A stretch of 61,099 nucleotides of DNA, filler included, from Basidiobolus ranarum (taxonomy: Eukaryota), in the NCBI GenBank assembly GCA_040143965.1. It is 7 parts of 7 records of this genome, joined end to end, with 100 filler letters (N's around TTAATTAATTAA, not from the genome) between each part and the next. Parts side by side here need not be neighbours in the genome. Positions count along the whole stretch, not along the records: positions 52,485 to 61,099 come from JASJQH010000948.1; 6 more parts are not named here. One strand, 5' to 3'. The notes under the pieces are model-generated. The model saw only the letters and a program-made list of their open reading frames with translations. It did not search any database and was not told where the DNA came from. This document shows, one piece after another, positions 8,669-58,680 of the stretch. Made by a program: the position numbers and the translations under genes. Position 1 is the first letter of the stretch, and each line of letters starts with the position of its first letter.

Positions 8669-8768
8669 NNNNNNNNNNNNNNNNNNNNNNNNNNNNNNNN
8701 NNNNNNNNNNNNTTAATTAATTAANNNNNNNNNNNNNNNNNNNNNNNNNNNNNNNNNNNNNNNNNNNN
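8669..8768. other. Artificial contig linker (N44-TTAATTAATTAA-N44)
   Basis: Six-frame stop linker. Identical linkers at 17425-17524, 26171-26270, 34915-35014, 43657-43756 and 52385-52484. Confidence 0.99.
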
Positions 8769-17424: not shown

Positions 17425-18824
17425 NNNNNNNNNNNNNNNNNNNNNNNNNNNNNNNNNNNNNNNNNNNNTTAATTAATTAANNNNNNNNNNNNNNNNNNNN
17501 NNNNNNNNNNNNNNNNNNNNNNNNTAGTATATTTTAAAGGGATTATAATATTGACATTGAGTACCAGGAAATTTCATCGTTGTCCACAAAAGAATCCGAT
17601 TTTGGAAGCAGAAAATCAGCTGGCCCAAATTGGAATAGAGTTGGGCGGAGTGAATCTTGTTTAGAAGTTCTCGACGTGTATAACAGCCGCGGGAATCTTG
17701 ACTACCAAGTTCATAGCCAAGCAAATATATCTTCTCTCCCTACCGATTCATGTCTATCGGACCGCTGATAATACCAAATTAGTGTCTGATTATAGCGTAG
17801 TTGAAGCGATCGGCCTAAATGGTATACTCTGCGTAAATTGGGCGTATTGGCTGCCACGAACTGTAGCCCCTGTAGTAAACCACTAAAGTATATCAAGGTT
17901 AGAGATTGCATAATACCCGCTGCGAGCATAGAAAGGAGTTTCTTTTGGGTTTACGTGTGGTTTTCGATTTGTCTCAAGACAATGAATAGTGAACGGGGTG
18001 GAGATACCTCATTATTGTACATCATGACAAATCATTGTGTAATGCTGTAATAGATCTTAAACAATATTTGACTGAATTGTTTGTAGACTTTGTATCTGAT
18101 GAAATGAACAAGTGAATTGACGGGCAACGAGAGAACCCGAATGCCAACATGTAAGGGATAGACGTGGGACATTAACGCGATGCAGAAGAAGCACAATGTT
18201 GCTGAGGGTGTCTGTGCATGGAGGTGATTGATAAAGCATGAACGGTTGAAAATTTCAACAGTTGTATATTTAGGAATCCCGCAAACAAACACCGAATAGA
18301 AATGAGCCATTCTTAGCACTACGTATTAAACCCATCTGGATCTTACAACCTGATAGTGTAAGGTGAGTGAGACAAGGTTTTTACGCATTCCATGCTCTGG
18401 AGTGCATTAACTATTGGGTCACTTGTGATATGATCGCGATCTGTGTGATGGAATTCGAGAAATAAGACTGGAAAGCAGACAGGAGGCTTGATCAATAGGT
18501 TGGTAATAATAATATCAATTAGAATATTAATAGTAGTTTAAAAAGAACTTAATTAACGCCAGGGGAGTGTAATGCATCCTAATTGGTGCACTACATCTAA
18601 TTATATTACAACTTGGACTTATTCTATTTCTCTACAGTCATTTTCACTTGTACCAAATTCGGCAGCCAGATTCCAACAGAAATCTAAATAAGCGGTCTAA
18701 ACCTCTGTTGTCGCCTCATTTTCTTGATGCCATTCGTATTCATACTTATTTGCTGATATCCGACTAGAGCCTCTTTCTTTACAACGTCTTACCACTTCAC
18801 ACGGTATAGAGCAGTCATACAAAA

Positions 18825-26170: not shown

Positions 26171-27904
26171 NNNNNNNNNNNNNNNNNNNNNNNNNNNNNN
26201 NNNNNNNNNNNNNNTTAATTAATTAANNNNNNNNNNNNNNNNNNNNNNNNNNNNNNNNNNNNNNNNNNNNTTCCAATTGTACGTATGGCTAGTCACGCAC
26301 TTTTTGAATTTCTTTAATGCCATTTACTAGCTATTCTAGTTCACATATTTCTACGTACGGTGTGCGCTTGAATTTGTTATTGTTATTTCCCGAGTGTTGG
26401 CTCTACAGGTGCGCCATATTCAATCATATTCGTGTTGTGGCAAATACAACTGCATTTCCAACTACGTGTTATTTACTATGTGGTGGCTGAATCTCAACGA
26501 TAATTTGTGATTCAGTTTCAACTGACGTACGTTACACGCCTTAAAATAGATGCTTTTTATCGTGGCCATGGCCCATGTTTGTTACCTGTTAGTCGAGTGT
26601 AAATGCCATTTCATGGAACCATTTGCAAGCGCACCTTTCCTTCAAATTCTACTTTCGATGGTTTGTTGATTCAGGTGAAAAGAAATGCAACTAGAATTAA
26701 GTTGAATGCGTACTAGGTAAGGCTACCTCAAGAGACACTATGCCTTCTTGATGAAACACTAATATGAGTGGTAGATATTTAGCAACTGTATAAGGTATTT
26801 GATGAGAGTATGATTTCTCTCTCGGTAGATATCTTAAATATTGTAGAAGCCTTATTTTTCATGTGAAACAATATTCTTTGCAAACAATGTAGATGGTGTC
26901 TTGTTGAGCTTGTATTCTTGCTTTGTACCTCTGTCCAGTATCTAAAAGTATCGCACCTCACTGTGATGAAAATCACCGATTGAAAATATGTAGGCATCTT
27001 GGAGGTATTTATTACAGTCAAGTAGGGAATTTGATGGTTAAATATAGTGAGCGGGTGTTTAGTGCACTAACAATTGCTCCAGTTGATATAGAATTTACGC
27101 GAGACCATATCTGTGAAATGATACTGCATAGATGTACAAGAATAGGTAAATCATAATAATATTTCAGTGGTAGTAATATATTGCGTATCACAGCTGAGTG
27201 CCCTTCCTGTCATTAGTAGTCGCATTGTTGACTGCTTTACGAATAATAACAATCGAACCTTGAAAACTGGTTTTAAACTTCACAGCATGAAACTTTACAT
27301 CACTGAAACCATCAGAGGTTCCTTACTTCCCTTTTCAGTATTTCTTTTGTATGCGCCCTGGGGCTTATCTACTCTTGGAATTTCTCTTCTTTGCGTGCAT
27401 AGACAAGTGAGCCAGAGAAGGCTTGCTCTACCTGAACGAAAGGATCGCACAATGATGCTTATAATGAGTGTATTCGCTTGCCCGAGTTTCAAAATATCTG
27501 CTCCTACTGAAGATACGGAGACTAAACGGAACAACTGAAGATCAAGATAGGCATTTGCAATGCTATAAAGAGAAAGTCTGCATAAATGGGATTAAAATAC
27601 CTTTTGTAGTATGATCAATGACATCATTCGATTTCAGGCAACGTACTGCCAAGATAAAGTATTATATGAAACATACGTATTACCACTAGTTCTTGCGCCA
27701 CAAATATTCTAGCGAGGGTTAAATCTTCTGAAATGCTGTTAATGTGATACAAACTACCATTTACACCTTTTGGCTATCAGCGTTTTGTAACGAACGCCGC
27801 AGTTTAATGCTTACAAAACTATAAATAGTCCCCATATCCTATTCTCTGCTACTCACATTCCTTTAACAATAATTCTCTTTTTATTTATTGATCAAAGGAG
27901 TAAA

Positions 27905-34914: not shown

Positions 34915-35054
34915 NNNNNNNNNNNNNNNNNNNNNNNNNNNNNNNNNNNNNNNNNNNNTTAATTAATTAANNNNNNNNNNNNNNNNNNNNNNNNNNNNNN
35001 NNNNNNNNNNNNNNCTATAAAATCAGAGGCAAAAAAAAAGGAATACCTAAAATA

Positions 35055-43656: not shown

Positions 43657-43756
43657 NNNNNNNNNNNNNNNNNNNNNNNNNNNNNNNNNNNNNNNNNNNN
43701 TTAATTAATTAANNNNNNNNNNNNNNNNNNNNNNNNNNNNNNNNNNNNNNNNNNNN

Positions 43757-51329: not shown

Positions 51330-52384
51330 TGTAGTTTTTAATGCAGTTAAGGCTCCAGATTTTGATTTTGGCAAGAATGCCAAATAAAATCTTGTTTTGT
51401 CAACAATAAAGATTCTGAAGTGGCTTTTGCCACCTATTGAAATGTAATTCATTGACCATATTGGTCAGAATGAGTCACAGCAAAATTCCAAGAGGATTCA
51501 ATATTGCTCAAGCTTGAAAACAGCTGTCTTCAATGTTTTCCATAAATGCAACTATCTTGCAGATCCAATTTAGTGATATTTACAAATTCTTAGCCTGAAA
51601 CAAGCTGATGATGGATCATTTGGGTCTGTTTTGATCAAGGTGTTTATGGGATTTGGAAGTGTTTTAGACAAAAGTTGGATTTGTGAATTAGACACTTTAG
51701 TTTTATTGAATTGAATGTGTCCTGTTTAGAGTTTACTATGAAATAGGACTTTTGGATGTTCTTAGATCATAACAAACAAGCCTGCTAAGCATGGGTGAAA
51801 CCTTGAGGTGGTTTGGAGAAGTTTTGAGAAAATAATGAAACTGGTAAAAGTTATCTAATTGATGTTTCTCTCAACTAGAGCAATAAACAAACATAGTGCA
51901 AGGAGGGGAGTGAGTGCTAAGTAATCAGAATATGAATAAACTAACTACTAAATAATGATTTGCTATTTACCTAAATTCAACATTCCCACTCTACTAATTA
52001 ATTTGTATTTTTCTTAAATCTAACTTATATCTTAATAATTCAAATTGTGCTTTAGCTAAAGGTTTGGCTAAGATGTCAGCAATCACTTGTTCAGTAAGGC
52101 AATAGAGAAGTTCAATTATATCATTCTCTATTTGCTCTCTAGCAAAATGATGCATAATATCTATATTTTTTGTTTTGGCACAAAATGTAGGGTTTTTAGC
52201 TAATGAAATAGATATTTGATTATCTTCAAGTACAGTAATAGTATCTTTTTGCATGTGGCCTAAGTTTGTAACTAACTCCCTTAACAACATAGCTTCTTGA
52301 GTGGTAGCAGAGGCAGCCATATACTCTGCTTCTGTAGTGGAAAGTGCTATGGTTTGTTGCTTGTTACTACTTCAAGTTATGGCT
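51330..52384 (-). mobile_element. Inverted sibling copia copy (RNase H, PPT, LTR at ~51627-52384) abutting an integrase remnant
   Basis: EAEYMAASATTQEA..EDNQISISLAKNP..ADILAKPL. The reverse complement is colinear with ~45345-46112. Followed by THSDQYG..SIGGKSH..FIVDK remnants. Confidence 0.85.
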
Positions 52385-52485
52385 NNNNNNNNNNNNNNNN
52401 NNNNNNNNNNNNNNNNNNNNNNNNNNNNTTAATTAATTAANNNNNNNNNNNNNNNNNNNNNNNNNNNNNNNNNNNNNNNNNNNNG

Positions 52486-52595
52486 ATTCAACCATTAGTA
52501 TTAGGTCTGAAAGTATCTTTTGTTCTGTTCTGTTTTATCTGGGTAAGAGCTTGTTATCCTCGTCTAAGATATGATCAATTAATGTCATTCTGTTG
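52486..52595 (+). pseudogene. nad1: Mitochondrial nad1 fragment (NUMT or chimeric contig end)
   Basis: Translates IQPLVLGLKVSFVLFCFIWVRACYPRLRYDQLMSFC, the conserved ND1 FIWVRAxxPRxRYDQLM motif. Confidence 0.9.
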
Positions 52596-54259
52596 CCACA
52601 CATATCTGGTGATCGCAGTGCTCTACCAAACACTATTGAACTTGGTCCTAGGAATGAAATATCTAAACCACTGGGTCCCGACCAATCGGGGTGGTTCAAG
52701 GAACCTGCCACTTGATATTTGCTAGGAGTATGGTATAACTGCCAGTGTATCTTTAACATCACCTCAGTGGTCATACCAGTTACCCGGTTGGCCCGAGCAA
52801 ACGATGTGCTGGTTTGATGGGAATTGACCGCTTGGTGGATGTTTGCACATGCTGATGAAATAGGAGCGCCAACGGCTGCTCTAGTATTGGTCGTAAATAT
52901 ATCGTCGCTATACGAAGTAGAGTTAGTTGTATAAATAAAAGTACTTCAATGCTGCCTTCTTACATGATTACTTTGGTATCTTGGATAAAGATATGTGAGT
53001 ATGACTCTAGTAACGTTCCTATTCCTCCAAGATGATCTGCAATATTTAAAGATCCATTTTAGTTCATCTCTTAGTAGACGATGGCAAATACTGCACTCGA
53101 GGCAATGTAATTATATGTCATATATATACCTTCATCTAAATGGGTAACAATTAAGTGGCTGATGTGACCCTTTTGCGGAACTCCTTCAACAGTAATCGAA
53201 GAGTTGCCAATTACGCTTAAGATATTTTTCACTGCAGAACCTGATCCACCACCATCTACCAATAGCCTGTCAAGATTCCATAATTGACACTCAGGAGCAT
53301 TTCTCACAGTTGCGCTTGTGTACCGGTTATTTCCATTACACCTCCAATGCTCAAAGGTAAGTATGAAGCTACAAGTATAGAGTCTCTTGTCAATGATTAA
53401 AGGTATATTAAATACTCAGGAAACCAATACCTGCCTATCACCTCTACCAACTTGTACCATGTCCGTGGTTTGAAAGCGTACGTCACTCTCCCCCTGCCTC
53501 ACACTGATATCATTACACACAATAGATTCGAAAGTGGTATTTGGGTCTGTTCCTGTACGCAAGTAGGCATTTTTAGTGTATTCAAGAACATGGTAGATGG
53601 GCGCTTGTTGTACTGTCAGAAAGAAAATGTTAAATAGTTCTGCTTGGTCTTTGTTATCAAGCGGTATTTTGTTTGTATAATACCAAGAATCATATATATT
53701 TCTATACTGTGTAGACAGATATTCTTGGTTACTGCCTGATAACTCTCTAGCAACTATGTCCGTATTGGACTGCTTGCATGAATTATTGTTAAGAAATTCA
53801 GCTATGGCGTCGGCTAATTTTTGTTTGTCAAAGTCATTTCCTCCTAAATGTAATAGCAGTATAAAGTTAGTACTGGAGTGAGAGTCAGGGCTTTATATTT
53901 AAATTACCGACTGGTTGCCTAAGGTAAGCAACTGAATTCTCATCTTGCTCAAATCGAGTTCCGTTACTGAAGAACTGACAATTTATCGGCCCCTTCGATT
54001 TTGAATCGTAGGAGATGTTGATCCCTTGACAAGAAGTTGTTTCTAAGCACCACGAGAAGCATACACTTTCTCTATCTGTTTGGATTCGCTCTACTTCGGC
54101 GCCCACTATTCTCTGCTTGTTAACGTATGCCAGGTACCCCGTCTCGGAAGTTAGATTAGCAGGAAATGCAGCTACTCCGTGATAATAAGAGAGGATCCAC
54201 ACCAAAGTGTACACCACACTTAATGTTCCCATCCAAGGACTTAGGGACCTTGCAGTCAT
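52535..54259 (-). CDS. Secreted PAN/Apple + ComEC-like metallo-beta-lactamase-fold fusion protein (5 exons, 481 aa as assembled, C-terminus replaced by antisense nad1)
   Basis: Exons 54259-53908, 53843-53435, 53368-53130, 53036-52964 and 52907-52535 join in frame without stops. Signal peptide; PAN Cys pattern CFSWCLETTSC..NCQFF; MBL motifs VQVGRGDS/FIL, LLVDGG, THLDE/DHLGG and FLGP. Confidence 0.82.
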
Positions 54260-55016: not shown

Positions 55017-57879
55017 CTAATGGGAGAAAGACCAGATTAGATTAAATTACTGTCTTGGCCAAGGTATATAATTTCTTTGTTAGTAGCAGCTTAACCTAAG
55101 TTAAGAAAAACAAATATTTTAAAATGGCAATAATCGCCACTATGTTCATAGCCAGCATAGCAGTATAAAGTAACATCGGGTATACTGTAGTTTATAAGAG
55201 CCAAAGTCTCATATAAATAATTTCAGTAGCTTTCATATAGAGTGCATTACATTAGATTAAGTAATTAAATGTCGACAATAACGCAGTGAATTGAGAAGTC
55301 AAGTTGTAATGATGGTAACCTATTATATGCAGTAGTCATCCACTATCTCGGTACACAGCATAACTATATCCACTATTGGATTCTTTTCTCAGGATACACT
55401 TTAGTTGACTCGTACCACTGGAATTTTCTCTACCTGTCCAGGACCTTAGACAATGATTGATAATCTATGCCACTCTCCCCAAGTACCTCATTAGTGCAAT
55501 CCCACTTGAAGTAGCTAGTGGAGAATGAAATAAACTTGAGGTGTTGCAATCTCTTAATACTTCAAGACATAAGTTCAAGTAGCGGTTGACACTTTTTTTT
55601 TCAACCAGTAACGAGGTACAAGTAGATTCAGGAACACCAGAAGTTACATTTCTCCTCTGTTAGTGGGAAATTGAGTACGCTTCACTCGGAATTCTAAAAT
55701 TCTTGAGTTGGCCAGAAACGCAAATATCTGCCTTTACAGTCGCTACTGAAGATGATATCCTCACTTTAGTTACTGAGGTTTGCAAGGAGACTTTGCTTAC
55801 TACAGAAATTAAATGCCCGGTGACCATCTACTACATTGATTCTACTTACTGGCACAATGTAATTAACTTTAATAGCCACGTATCCAAAAGCCTAAGCTCA
55901 TCCGTGAATGTTGTTATTCCTTATTCTCGCTTTTAATAGATAAAGTTCAGCGTACACTATTAAACAGGGAGATTATAGCAAATCCATCTATGAGCAATAT
56001 GGTATTAACAAATTACCTTCTGTCCGAGATAATCCGGGCCTTGATTGCAACCATTTGACAACAGGACAAAGCATTTGCATTCCTCAGGTTTGCAGGAAAG
56101 AACACGATGCTCAGGATAAAAATCCAGGACACCTGTCTCTTGGTAATAGGCACCTAGGGTTAGGTGGGTACAAAGAACTTATGTTTCAGCAACCCCACAT
56201 TAGACTGCTGTGATCTTTATGTGAATCATATATATTGTATATCTCACCCTGCAATAATTCCACCAACAGTCACTGCTGCTTTACCGTAAGTTTTTCTCAC
56301 CTTATGGCTACTCACTCAGTTCGTCCTACACCTTCCTACTTTTCTTCGCAAATATATGGATAAGTCAAAAGTTGAGCTGCAATTACTAAATTATCTTTTC
56401 TCATGAAATCTTCAGTAATCCAACCTCAACCCAAATAATTCCGCCAACAACCACTAGTGCTCTACCGCAAGTACTTTTTGTATTGCCAGTATTCATTAAA
56501 TAGCTCTGTCCGTAATTTCTTGCTTTCCTTTAGATATATTGGTGCTACTAGTTATGCTAGTTTGGAAGTGGTCTTGTAGAATATTTAAAATGATACGAGC
56601 AATGTCTATAACAAGCCAATGTGAATGCATAGTACCATAATGTAACACTAAATCCGGTACTTCGGTTGGACAAGATGGTCAATGCCCATAACAGGTCAAT
56701 GCGGGTATAAATTAACATACCGATAAAACATCATGATCCCCCTGCGGAACTTGATCTTAAAGTGTTGAACTTCTCTGCGTTGAATTTACCCTACAGTATT
56801 TCTCACTAGGAAAATAAGCACTTTTTTTGTGGCTTAAAAGCTTGATTTCTGATGCCATTCGCTATTTAGTTTGTGGCACTCCAATGGTTGAGTATAAATT
56901 GTCGGTATACAAGGTAAATCATATAACGACATTCTATTACGTATGTTCAAATAGAGCGCTGTAAAGTTATTTTTATAAGCCAGGAACATCCTATCCCAAT
57001 TCAATTGAGAAGGAAAGAAATTTACTCTGTGATATTAAAAAGTAGGCTTCTTTGACTATCATATGACTTTGTATTACAAAACTAGAACCCATTATTACTC
57101 TCTTGGTTTGGAAATTTACCGTACTACGTCCATAACATTCACCAACCGGCAATCAACGATTGAGTGCCAGATCAAACAGAAAGGTTTGATGGAGCTGTGT
57201 ATAGTACATCGTAAACGTTGCATTTCACAACCACAAGTTATATAGCTTAAAGAAGTTTTGAATCTATCTGTACTTGGTTACTATTTGTGCTTATTGGTAC
57301 CAGGATACCAGTTGGAAAATTGTCACCTTCCACATTTAGTGCTTCACTGAGACTTCTCGCAAGTGGCTAAACCTCAAAAGATCAGTGGGCCTACACTATG
57401 CGTATAAATTACACCAATGGGGCTATTCGACTAGACTCGCAGGGTAATTAGTGAACATATTTCTCTGTTAAATATTTCAAATCCTTGGCCAAGGAACTGG
57501 CCAGATATAGAAATTTCCGGTCTACGGGTCAGCTAAAGTGTTTCCTTAGAAAAGGATCTTATGATGAATAAAATACCGAGGAGTACCCCAATTATTGGTT
57601 ACTAGCATATCCAGGCCAATGATAATCATCTATACATTGACACTCTTCTAGCATACCGGCCACTGAGCAGTATTATATCCAGGTATCTAATTACAATCGA
57701 GGGCATGTAGATCTGGGAAGGAAAAGTGAACCGGATTCGGCATGTTCTACGATGTTTAGTTTAGACAACTTTATAGAAAGCTAGGTCAAAATCAACCTAT
57801 CCCAATTGAACTCCACCCCACTGACTCTTATTGTATAGTTGAACTGGTTGATACTAAAGAAAAAAGGATTGTTAGATCG

Positions 57880-58680
57880 CTACGTGTATAGTAATTGCAC
57901 TCTGGTAAGATAACTACTTGTAGCTGTAGCATGAGAATTGCAACCCATTGAAACGCCAATGGTAAGATCATCTAATGAAATACCCGATTGATTGAGAGAT
58001 AGCAACAGTTGGAGTAATGGAATTAAAATATTAAAGCAAAAGTATTACCACCTCGCACTCTCCTACTAAGAATCCAATTTACAATGAGTGCGCCTGAAAT
58101 ACCAATCAATACGACCAAGATTACACCAAGCGTGACATCTCCACCAATGGTAGTAATTAAACTAATAGTCAGGGGAGTAGTGATTGATCTTGGTGAAGCA
58201 AGGTTAGGATTAATGTTTGGATACAAATAAGGTTCGAGTGACCAGGTCAAATTGAATAAGAATCACCTTCCTGCAGAAGCTAGTGAATGTTCGATACTTA
58301 TTCCTATAGCGTGGCAGATCACCGGATATAGAAAGATGGTCAAAATTGAAAGGATTGGAATAACTAGTAACATCTCAAACATCTATTAAATAAGTCATGT
58401 TGAGATTAGTCAAACAATTGCCAAGATGAACATGGATCATACTTTTGTATCCTCGAACATCTTTTCTGAATTTAGGCATGTTGAAAGATCAAACTGTGAG
58501 CATCTCCCGTCGGCCTAATCTTAGCAAGGATAGGAAACGTATCCCAGAGGAATAGCTAGTCAAACCTAGTGCAAAACGAGCCAGAACGAAGAACCCAGAG
58601 AAGAGATTTACCATGATCTTCTTGCCTCTAACCGCCGATATGCTTTTGGCAAGTGATAGAACATACACTATAAAAAACAA
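57880..58680 (-). pseudogene. LrgB-like (CidB/LrgB, PLGG1-type) membrane protein, decayed/truncated
   Basis: Spliced LTIFLYPVICHAIGISIEHSLASAGR/SITTPLTISLITTIGGDVTLGVILVVLIGISGALI../DDLTIGVSMGCNSHATATS, matching LrgB RSxTxP and GxxxGxxSHxxxT. It stops before the last helix and the upstream frame is broken. Confidence 0.7.

Follow-up and report, generated by a model that had tools for sequence, protein, structure and literature searches.

The locus at 54259-52535 on the minus strand of the window (61,099 nt of Basidiobolus ranarum DNA, in which seven contigs are joined end to end) is a genuine spliced gene of five exons, with homology supporting all four of its splices. The explanation we favour, and consider probable as a whole, is that the product of this gene, K7432_011765, would start with a hydrophobic leader and continue through a PAN/Apple domain and a conserved helical linker into the first half of a ComEC-type metallo-beta-lactamase (MBL) domain, and that the gene belongs to a small fungal family of the metal-dependent hydrolase type. 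It lies at the edge of the last contig (52485-61099), and its features, all on the minus strand, are as follows.

54167-54259, minus strand: start codon and N-terminal hydrophobic segment, residues 1-31, from the translation; possible signal peptide ending ...HGVAA|FP.
53915-54139, minus strand: PAN/Apple domain, residues about 41-115, with four cysteines, inside exon 1 (53908-54259), from the structure model and Foldseek.
53844-53907, minus strand: intron 1, 64 nt, GT-AG, with TACTAAC; the junction is identical in the GenBank protein.
53491-53843, minus strand: first part of exon 2, a mostly helical linker, residues about 118-235, conserved with the paralogue P0002.
53435-53490, minus strand: last part of exon 2, the start of the MBL domain up to GRGD; G252 and D253 are invariant columns.
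53369-53434, minus strand: intron 2 as originally predicted, 66 nt, GC-AG; GenBank removes 53386-53430 instead.
53130-53368, minus strand: exon 3, MBL strands with LLVDGG and the first part of THLDE|DH, from translation, alignment and Pfam.
53037-53129, minus strand: intron 3, 93 nt, GT-AG, splitting HxDxDH; the splice restores THLDEDHLGG, where P0002 has THLDEDHIGG.
52964-53036, minus strand: exon 4, DHLGG and the next helix, from translation and alignment.
52908-52963, minus strand: intron 4, 56 nt, GT-AG, with AACTAAC, from the spliced frame.
52595-52907, minus strand: homologous part of exon 5, a variable insertion and the FLGP strand, to ...LRSPDMCG, from tblastn; GC 0.476, exon-like.
52485-52594, minus strand: tail with the annotated last 19 codons, the stop at 52535-52537, a branch-point-like TACTAAT and the contig edge at 52485; no supported homology.
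56900-57034, minus strand: relic of the N-terminus of another family member, related to the gene but separate from it, with 49% identity to P0002 residues 23-67 (E 8e-9).

Joining 54259-53908, 53843-53435, 53368-53130, 53036-52964 and 52907-52535 on the minus strand gives 1446 nt, or 481 codons with no internal stop, followed by TAA at 52537-52535, and the spliced translation holds VQVGRGDSFIL, LLVDGG, THLDEDHLGG and FLGP. The stop-free five-exon frame with these MBL motifs, as put forward in the original prediction, was thus reproduced, and it matches the GenBank model outside intron 2. The description of the gene as hidden did not stand, however, as it is already annotated in GenBank as K7432_011765 (P0001), a hypothetical protein of 488 aa that is 100% identical across exon 2 and is auto-named an MBL-domain protein in UniRef. 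Let us consider whether the frame could be an artefact made of chance ORFs, or of a PAN gene and an MBL fragment wrongly joined. In line with such an artefact, exons 2, 4 and 5 taken singly match nothing in Pfam, and the one match of exon 3, to DUF1598 (E 0.075), is at chance level. Against it, the paralogue P0002 is collinear across all five exons at 57% identity, also by tblastn, and the PAN-linker-MBL order recurs in P0003 and in the chytrid protein P0007. We therefore regard an artefact of this kind as scarcely credible. Neither a stop nor a frameshift interrupts the 469 homologous codons of the frame, and the ends of the four introns are all plausible.

The two gene models differ at intron 2 alone. 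The original prediction removes 53434-53369, with GC-AG ends (GCAGGT...TGTAG), whereas GenBank removes 45 nt with GT-AG ends, 53430-53386, which results in a 7-residue insert, RQRLYTC, in the protein. Because none of the 11 relatives in the 12-sequence family alignment has residues at this position, the GC-AG splice is favoured over that of GenBank.

The PAN/Apple fold, claimed from the sequence, was borne out by structure comparison. The PAN region of the P0001 model has pLDDT 75-94, and apple domains of factor XI or (pre)kallikrein account for its top five Foldseek matches and for nine in all among the matches listed (prob 1.00; 75-87 columns, rmsd 2.3-4.7 A). The small fold is what the domain has in common with the apple domains of factor XI and plasma prekallikrein; unlike them, the window's PAN is a single domain with four cysteines, is 12-17% identical to them and falls below the PAN_1 cut-off (PF00024; 16.1 and 13.2 bits vs 21.4). 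PAN_4 (PF14295) is likewise not passed by the window's copy (13.4 bits vs 27), and it is passed at the aligned region by the relatives P0005 (30.1) and P0006 (36.3), which adds to the Foldseek evidence for the fold. The four cysteines align with those of P0002, P0003 and P0007. The linker that follows matched no Pfam family; it is predicted to be helical, with pLDDT <50.

For the MBL domain, the call is marginal when the window's copy is taken alone and solid for the full-length paralogue K7432_014481 (P0003). P0001 residues 296-353 exceed the cut-off of Pfam Lactamase_B (PF00753) by 0.4 bits (23.1 vs 22.7), and P0003 reaches 29.3 bits on the same family. The front half of the domain is modelled with pLDDT of about 80-89 in a P0001 model whose overall mean is 60, and only the first MBL sheet is confident; the Foldseek MBL matches of this model have prob 0.6-0.98 with E>1e-2, and none of its matches reaches E<=1e-3. 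The 12-sequence alignment has 13 invariant columns, GD, LxDxG and HxDxDHxxG among them, all of which the window's copy keeps. It is without two metal-binding motifs, TGD and HH[GA]S, both of which are found in P0003, P0007 and P0015. The original prediction had pointed to intact paralogues as carriers of the missing motifs, and P0003 is such a copy, with GPGDS, LIDGG, THLDLDH, IGP, NMIS, FTGD and PHHAS.

The assignment to the ComEC/Avs1a type of MBL holds for the family on three grounds: it keeps HxDxDH, NxxS, TGD and HH[GA]S; its best NCBIfam and PADLOC profiles are Avs1a, DRT-associated MBL and Lamassu MBL; and the solved structure that the full-length paralogue matches best is the ComEC MBL domain. 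On the Avs1a profile of NCBIfam (NF041809, cut-off 420), which neither protein passes, P0001 scores 20.8 bits and P0003 61.7, and P0003 has 28.3 bits for ComEC. In PADLOC, which gives no cut-offs, P0001 scores 14.9-25.4 bits, and P0003 scores 84.6 for RTasMBL, 76 for the Lamassu MBL (LmuA-MBL) and 46.6 for Avs1a. The ComEC/Rec2 profile TIGR00361 gives 10.3 bits against a cut-off of 190.05, not passed, and Pfam finds no Competence domain (PF03772) in P0001. Of 159 structural matches of the P0003 model at E<=1e-3, mostly MBL-fold enzymes among the matches listed, the best in the PDB is the beta-lactamase-like domain of ComEC (9ic4; E 6.1e-10, target TM 0.72), followed at ranks 2-3 by Pce/CbpE (2bib, 1wra; E 7e-7) and then by yeast PDE1 and arylsulfatase. 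The nearest clusters in the ESM Atlas are bacterial stand-alone MBLs and the 'ComEC/Rec2 family' (TM 0.58-0.73).

The C-terminal domain of ComEC/Rec2 in 9ic4, from Moorella glycerini, is also the best PDB sequence match, and it shares GxGD, LxDGG, HxDxDHxGG, NxxS, (T/S)(G/A)D and HHGS with the fungal proteins. Unlike ComEC, the fungal gene has no competence membrane domain, resides in a eukaryotic host, carries introns and places a PAN domain and a linker ahead of the MBL; moreover, the stretch from HxDxDH to NxxS is longer in the fungal proteins by about 55-75 residues, and the window's copy is without the second half of the domain. The MBL proteins Avs1a, HamM and the Lamassu/DRT partners, which give the top-scoring named profiles, share with the fungal proteins insertions relative to ComEC. 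They differ in that the fungal proteins score far below the family cut-off (420 for NF041809) and are multi-domain and eukaryotic rather than stand-alone and bacterial. No protease family, as a partner, was found in the five upstream ORFs scanned, and the logic of operons does not apply to a fungus. The phrase 'bacterial-type enzyme' in the original prediction is apt for the type of the family and not for its immediate kinship: the closest relatives are found in fungi (chytrids, Umbelopsis) rather than in bacteria, and give no sign of a recent transfer into Basidiobolus.

How large is this family? When 1.84 billion representatives were searched exhaustively with HMMER, 16 proteins came up at E<=1e-3, so this family of early-diverging fungi, which is uncharacterised, is very small. 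The MBL part is matched in P0003 of B. ranarum, P0007 of Phlyctochytrium, P0009 of Umbelopsis, P0014 of Entophlyctis, P0015 of Blyttiomyces and P0011. In word-index homologue searches the whole protein brought up nothing beyond the two B. ranarum proteins, and the paralogue's MBL part brought up four distant bacterial-type MBLs. The closest paralogue, P0002 (K7432_008445), is 55% identical over 87% of the query (E 1.5e-155) and 57% identical across the collinear exons, and P0003, at 27% identity, aligns throughout PAN, linker and MBL, as does P0007. Fuller members have the order leader, EF-hands, membrane helix, Cys-rich region, PAN, linker and complete MBL; in other relatives this type of MBL is fused with a GH18 chitinase. 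The fungal EF-hand/helix/Cys-rich/PAN proteins, named 'hypothetical' or 'EF-hand domain', comprise K7432_008445, K7432_014481, HDU97_002454 of Phlyctochytrium and basidiomycete relatives. Pfam found an MBL in none of the four basidiomycete relatives; in one of them, P0005, the C-terminal region read as sequence has no MBL motifs, and the other three matched the query over the EF-hand-to-PAN part only. The window's copy, the shortest member of the family, has leader, PAN, linker and MBL as both B. ranarum paralogues do, but between leader and PAN, which share one continuous exon, it has nothing that corresponds to about 310 residues of P0002. Relative to its closest paralogue it has lost this block of EF-hands, helix and Cys-rich region.

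The 3' end of the gene needs particular attention, as the annotated stop of K7432_011765 is 50 nt from the contig edge. In the tblastn alignments of both P0002 and P0003 homology stops at 52595, 110 nt short of that edge, so this copy has neither TGD nor HHGS. The GC content of the tail (0.327) is that of the introns (0.323) rather than of the exons (0.426). A MAFFT alignment had offered the annotated tail NRMTLIDHILDEDNKLLPR as a homologue of the NxxS..TGD segment with the stop falling at TGD, a candidate rejected by a shuffle test: the score of the tail peptide was equalled or exceeded in 297 of 2000 shuffles when the profile left out P0002, and in 430 of 2000 when it included P0002. We think it probable that the final 19 annotated codons and the stop do not code for protein, and that the annotated C-terminus is an artefact of the assembly edge.

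We lean slightly towards a gene that continues past the contig, with the tail as an intron. One observation sits poorly with such continuation: no GT donor follows the last homologous codon before the contig ends, and the only candidate, a poor GC donor at the MCG codon, would mean two GC-AG introns in one gene. The main competitor, a recently truncated copy, we hold to be a doubtful though substantial candidate, and we set aside only a small share of our expectation for something other than these two. In the truncated case the stop at 52535-52537 would be real, or a rearrangement would have followed codon 469, and the locus would be a decaying paralogue, either a pseudogene or a non-catalytic PAN protein; its product, ending before TGD and HH[GA]S, could not build the two-metal site, a consequence to which we attach the same reserve. 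An in-frame stop with no GT donor ahead of it speaks for truncation, and the GenBank model of the closest paralogue likewise ends just past FTG. The relic at 57034-56900, with a stop codon directly upstream and a degenerate EF-hand loop, is a decayed fragment of another family copy, and together with the lost EF-hand/helix/Cys-rich block it would fit a decaying locus. On the other hand, the 469 codons over five exons without stop or frameshift, and the retention of every invariant family residue, argue for selection that acted until recently; assembly truncation is the simpler cause of a break situated 110 nt from a contig edge; and the composition of the tail is intron-like.

As to the surroundings, weak collinear matches at 55629-55507 and 54412-54332 (E 0.65 each) were considered as a decayed tandem copy and rejected, as neither has DNA-level similarity, which leaves the relic at 57034-56900 as the one retained. 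The 156 nt at the contig end are not repeated anywhere else in the window, so no transposon is shown at the break. For a candidate copia-like ORF at 51997-52371, beyond the filler linker, Pfam found nothing, nor did it for the relic. A LysM ORF is found on the same contig as the gene.

What chemistry might the intact members carry out? Since this type of MBL is found in the ComEC nuclease and in defence pro-nucleases, metal-dependent phosphodiester hydrolysis would be the likeliest, with DNA as a first guess for the substrate. HamM and Avs1a are reported to be DNases once proteolytically activated (PMC12799240), and a protease-associated MBL is reported to be a Zn-dependent dsDNA nuclease (bioRxiv 10.1101/2025.11.14.688446). 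A nuclease is one option among several, given that a phosphorylcholine esterase, an arylsulfatase and a cyclic-nucleotide phosphodiesterase are also found among the solved MBL neighbours of the P0003 model. The family MBL might instead be a cell-wall or glycan phosphodiesterase like pneumococcal Pce, directed to polysaccharide by PAN or GH18. The high rank of Pce/CbpE, with PDE1 and arylsulfatase next, the carbohydrate-related nature of the fusion partners and the LysM ORF on the same contig are in keeping with that alternative. Pce/CbpE, the second-best structural neighbour, also pairs an MBL-fold phosphodiesterase with a surface-binding module, but is only 9-10% identical to the fungal protein and carries choline-binding repeats, not PAN. 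Against a glycan phosphodiesterase, the top structural match and the top sequence profiles are ComEC and the defence DNases, and the HxDxDH, NxxS and HHGS set agrees with the ComEC domain in the alignment. We think this alternative unlikely.

The original prediction went further and described an intact secreted, surface-targeted nuclease or phosphodiesterase effector acting outside the cell with PAN as its targeting module, a description that derives from a single feature, the N-terminal hydrophobic helix. Residues 9-28 are modelled as a helix with low confidence, and the N-terminus is 72% identical to that of P0002. Signal peptide cleavage and secretion may be proposed from this leader, and secretion, nuclease activity and an effector role for the window's protein are likewise suggestions drawn from its sequence. 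PAN and Cys-rich modules are usually extracellular, and both the MBL domain of ComEC and the Pce esterase work outside the cytoplasm. The two best structural neighbours of the family, both extracytoplasmic, point in the direction of a secreted effector, as do the fusion of the same MBL type in relatives to GH18 chitinase, an extracellular enzyme class, and the direct passage of the leader into PAN in the window's copy with no membrane helix between; a hydropathy scan found none in P0001. Yet the catalytic half is missing in this copy, and nothing in the data points to a target organism, which the word 'effector' implies. Furthermore, fuller paralogues with the same leader put EF-hands and a membrane helix between it and PAN, which by simple reading would place PAN-MBL on the opposite side of the membrane. 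The effector as a complete reading seems improbable to us.

More speculatively still, one may imagine that early-diverging fungi (Basidiobolus, chytrids, Umbelopsis) keep MBL nucleases of the ComEC/defence type displayed extracellularly on PAN or GH18 modules, the longer forms being coupled through a membrane helix to calcium-binding EF-hands as a calcium-regulated or protease-gated DNase, with the window's copy a freely secreted derivative. We consider this a long shot. If true, such a DNase system may target the DNA of bacterial biofilms or gut competitors, or scavenge DNA, and would be a eukaryotic counterpart of bacterial pro-nuclease effectors.

Lastly, irrespective of these details, the value of this single locus is smaller than that of the family: for the locus it consists of one splice-site correction to the GenBank model and a warning on the annotated C-terminus. 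ComEC-type MBL nucleases are known from bacteria, where they serve in DNA uptake and against phages. The papers covered by our literature search hold no description of conserved eukaryotic multi-domain relatives of this type, though the supplements of two defence-nuclease papers may list eukaryotic homologues. The relatives described here, fused to PAN, EF-hand or chitinase modules, occur in fungi that live among bacteria. Should the intact members prove to work outside the cell as nucleases or phosphodiesterases, they would be relevant to the way in which Basidiobolus and other gut fungi handle the DNA, biofilms or cell walls of bacteria, and would add a eukaryotic branch to a family studied in bacterial immunity.

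The gene lies on the minus strand (54259-52535), and when the five exons of the original prediction are joined, 1446 nt, they do read as one open frame of 481 stop-free codons followed by TAA at 52537-52535. The gene is annotated, not hidden as had been claimed, since its exon 2 is 100% identical to the B. ranarum hypothetical protein K7432_011765 in GenBank (P0001, 488 aa), which carries the automatic UniRef name 'Metallo-beta-lactamase domain-containing protein'. Introns 1, 3 and 4 are GT-AG (64, 93 and 56 nt), and the two models differ solely in intron 2, drawn as GC-AG of 66 nt in the original prediction and as GT-AG of 45 nt (53430-53386) in GenBank. The GenBank splice inserts RQRLYTC between GRGD and SFIL, at a position where none of 11 relatives in a 12-sequence alignment has residues and where the paralogues read GRGDSFVLAF and GPGDSFVLTF; judged from these sequences, the GC-AG version is therefore probably the better supported, at the cost of a GC donor.

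Six linkers join seven contigs of ~8.6-8.7 kb each end to end, so the window is not one continuous stretch of the genome, and features read through the linker points are artefacts. The last contig spans 52485-61099 (8615 bp, equal to the length on record for the contig of the GenBank protein), and the gene sits at its low-coordinate end.

Linkers and features near the gene
8669-8768, 17425-17524, 26171-26270, 34915-35014, 43657-43756, 52385-52484: linkers, N44-TTAATTAATTAA-N44
51994-52371, minus: open frame of 125 codons at the neighbouring contig's end, reminiscent of the C terminus of a copia-type polyprotein; no Pfam match at E<=0.1
55944-56213, plus: LysM-domain ORF upstream of the gene on its contig (Pfam 23 bits, cut-off 20.9)
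56900-57034, minus: relic of an N-terminus of this family, with 49% identity to the paralogue P0002 over its residues 23-67 (E 8e-9)
58023-58262, minus: LrgB-like ORF fragment upstream of the gene on its contig (34.5 bits)

The fusion of an apple-type PAN domain with the front half of a metallo-beta-lactamase (MBL) fold is likely, with low domain scores for this copy taken alone. With Pfam, exons taken singly gave only a sub-threshold PAN_1 match (16.1 bits, cut-off 21.4), and the whole GenBank protein gave Lactamase_B just over its cut-off (23.1 bits versus 22.7). An AlphaFold2 model built from a 22-sequence alignment (mean pLDDT 60) is confident for PAN (residues 41-115, 75-94) and the front half of the MBL domain (236-390, ~80-89), with pLDDT below 50 in the linker (117-234) and residues 394-444. 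Foldseek against the PDB placed factor XI/prekallikrein apple domains on top (probability 1.00, rmsd 2.3-2.9 A), followed by MBL-fold enzymes (0.6-0.98), with no match at E<=1e-3. Compared with P0002 (K7432_008445, 824 aa, 55-57% identity), the window's copy lacks ~310 residues comprising the EF-hand, helix and Cys-rich region, and this difference is genuine because leader and PAN share one continuous exon.

How the gene ends is less straightforward. In tblastn, the alignments of both P0002 and P0003 (K7432_014481, a second paralogue) end at 52595, at ...LRSPDMCG, 110 nt short of the contig edge. We think it somewhat probable that the gene continues beyond that edge, as the 469 intact codons and the retention of all invariant residues would suggest. 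The 110-nt tail has a GC content of 0.327, against 0.323 in the four introns and 0.426 in the exons, and holds TACTAAT shortly before the edge; against continuation through an intron, however, no GT donor follows the MCG codon in the tail, only a weak GC candidate. Recent truncation of the window's copy is a lesser but real possibility, in line with the loss of the EF-hand block and with the fragment at 57034-56900, where a stop codon lies immediately upstream and the aspartates of the EF-hand loop are substituted, which suggests a decayed second family copy on the same contig. Whichever reading holds, the window contains no complete MBL domain. A MAFFT alignment placing the last 19 codons on the NxxS..TGD block was rejected in a profile test, in which 297/2000 and 430/2000 shuffles scored at least as high as the real sequence. 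The GenBank model of P0002 likewise stops just past FTG, with 13 residues (LGLMTFKFIFAIC) aligning to nothing in its relatives, as if the model had run on into an intron or had come to the end of its contig.

A word-index search of 5.8 billion proteins found nothing besides P0001 and P0002, and an exhaustive HMMER search with the two-sequence profile against 1.84 billion representatives returned 16 proteins at E<=1e-3.

Matches of the two-sequence profile
MBL part: B. ranarum P0003 (979 aa); Phlyctochytrium planicorne P0007 (1258 aa); Umbelopsis P0009 (P0024 being a cluster member); Entophlyctis P0014; Blyttiomyces P0015; unnamed protein P0011 (325 aa)
N-terminal part only: Basidiomycota EF-hand/PAN proteins P0004-P0006 and P0008

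P0003 and P0007 run in the order leader, EF-hands, membrane helix, Cys-rich region, PAN, linker, complete MBL, and P0003, with NMIS, FTGD and PHHAS, is the intact paralogue that had been sought for the missing NxxS, TGD and HHGS-type motifs. P0024 and, from Entophlyctis, P0014, P0028 and P0029 combine this ComEC-like type of MBL domain with a GH18 chitinase, a second fungal architecture for the domain. In P0028 the first 590 residues are a Cys-rich repeat region that the other aligned sequences lack. The closest relatives come from fungi rather than bacteria, so recent transfer into Basidiobolus is not indicated.

The type of MBL domain is best seen in P0003, whose profile scores all lie well under membership cut-offs wherever these are given.

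Profile scores of P0003
PADLOC: RTasMBL 84.6 bits; Lamassu MBL model 76 bits; Avs1a 46.6 bits
NCBIfam: Avs1a 61.7 bits; ComEC_Rec2 28.3 bits

The top PDB sequence match is the MBL domain of ComEC, the bacterial DNA-uptake protein (9ic4), whose LLVDGG, THPDADHIGG, NNNS and KVPHHGS face the fungal motifs. The AlphaFold2 model of P0003 (mean pLDDT 66.5; MBL region mostly 60-92) has 159 structural matches at E<=1e-3, led by 9ic4 (E 6.1e-10, target TM 0.72) and then pneumococcal phosphorylcholine esterase Pce, an arylsulfatase and yeast PDE1. In the ESM Atlas the MBL part of P0003 lies near clusters of bacterial stand-alone MBLs and clusters named 'ComEC/Rec2 family' (TM 0.58-0.73), and two of its four word-index relatives (25-34% identity) are named ComEC by JGI. 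One report describes the defence MBLs HamM and Avs1a as DNases that a partner protease unmasks, likening them to the ComEC nuclease domain (PMC12799240); another describes a protease-associated MBL as a Zn-dependent dsDNA nuclease (bioRxiv 10.1101/2025.11.14.688446). Given these matches and DNase relatives, the likeliest chemistry of intact family members would be phosphodiester hydrolysis, with DNA as a first guess. The window's gene is not a ComEC, as it has no competence domain (Pfam), nor is it an Avs1a, its top NCBIfam profile (20.8 bits, cut-off 420; ComEC_Rec2 10.3 bits). As a relative of the ComEC/Avs1a MBL clade it is eukaryotic, has introns and combines several domains.

The leader of the window's protein is hydrophobic and ends at a putative cleavage site, and in the fuller paralogues the same leader precedes the EF-hands and membrane helix. 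Directly ahead of this helix, five of seven relatives (P0002-P0008) have a dibasic (Q/E)KR, P0003 having QAR and P0007 none; the motif may act as a positive-inside signal or be processed by a Kex2-type protease. ComEC and Pce act outside the cytoplasm, and together with the GH18 fusions this makes us lean towards an extracellular role for the family. The further proposal of an effector is supported by no result.

Our full-text literature search found no paper on fungal PAN/EF-hand/GH18-MBL proteins, and lactamase, ComEC and nuclease are all absent from the main text of a survey of horizontal transfer in early-diverging fungi. We consider the family moderately interesting, the window's locus being an edge-truncated, domain-poor member of it, already in GenBank.
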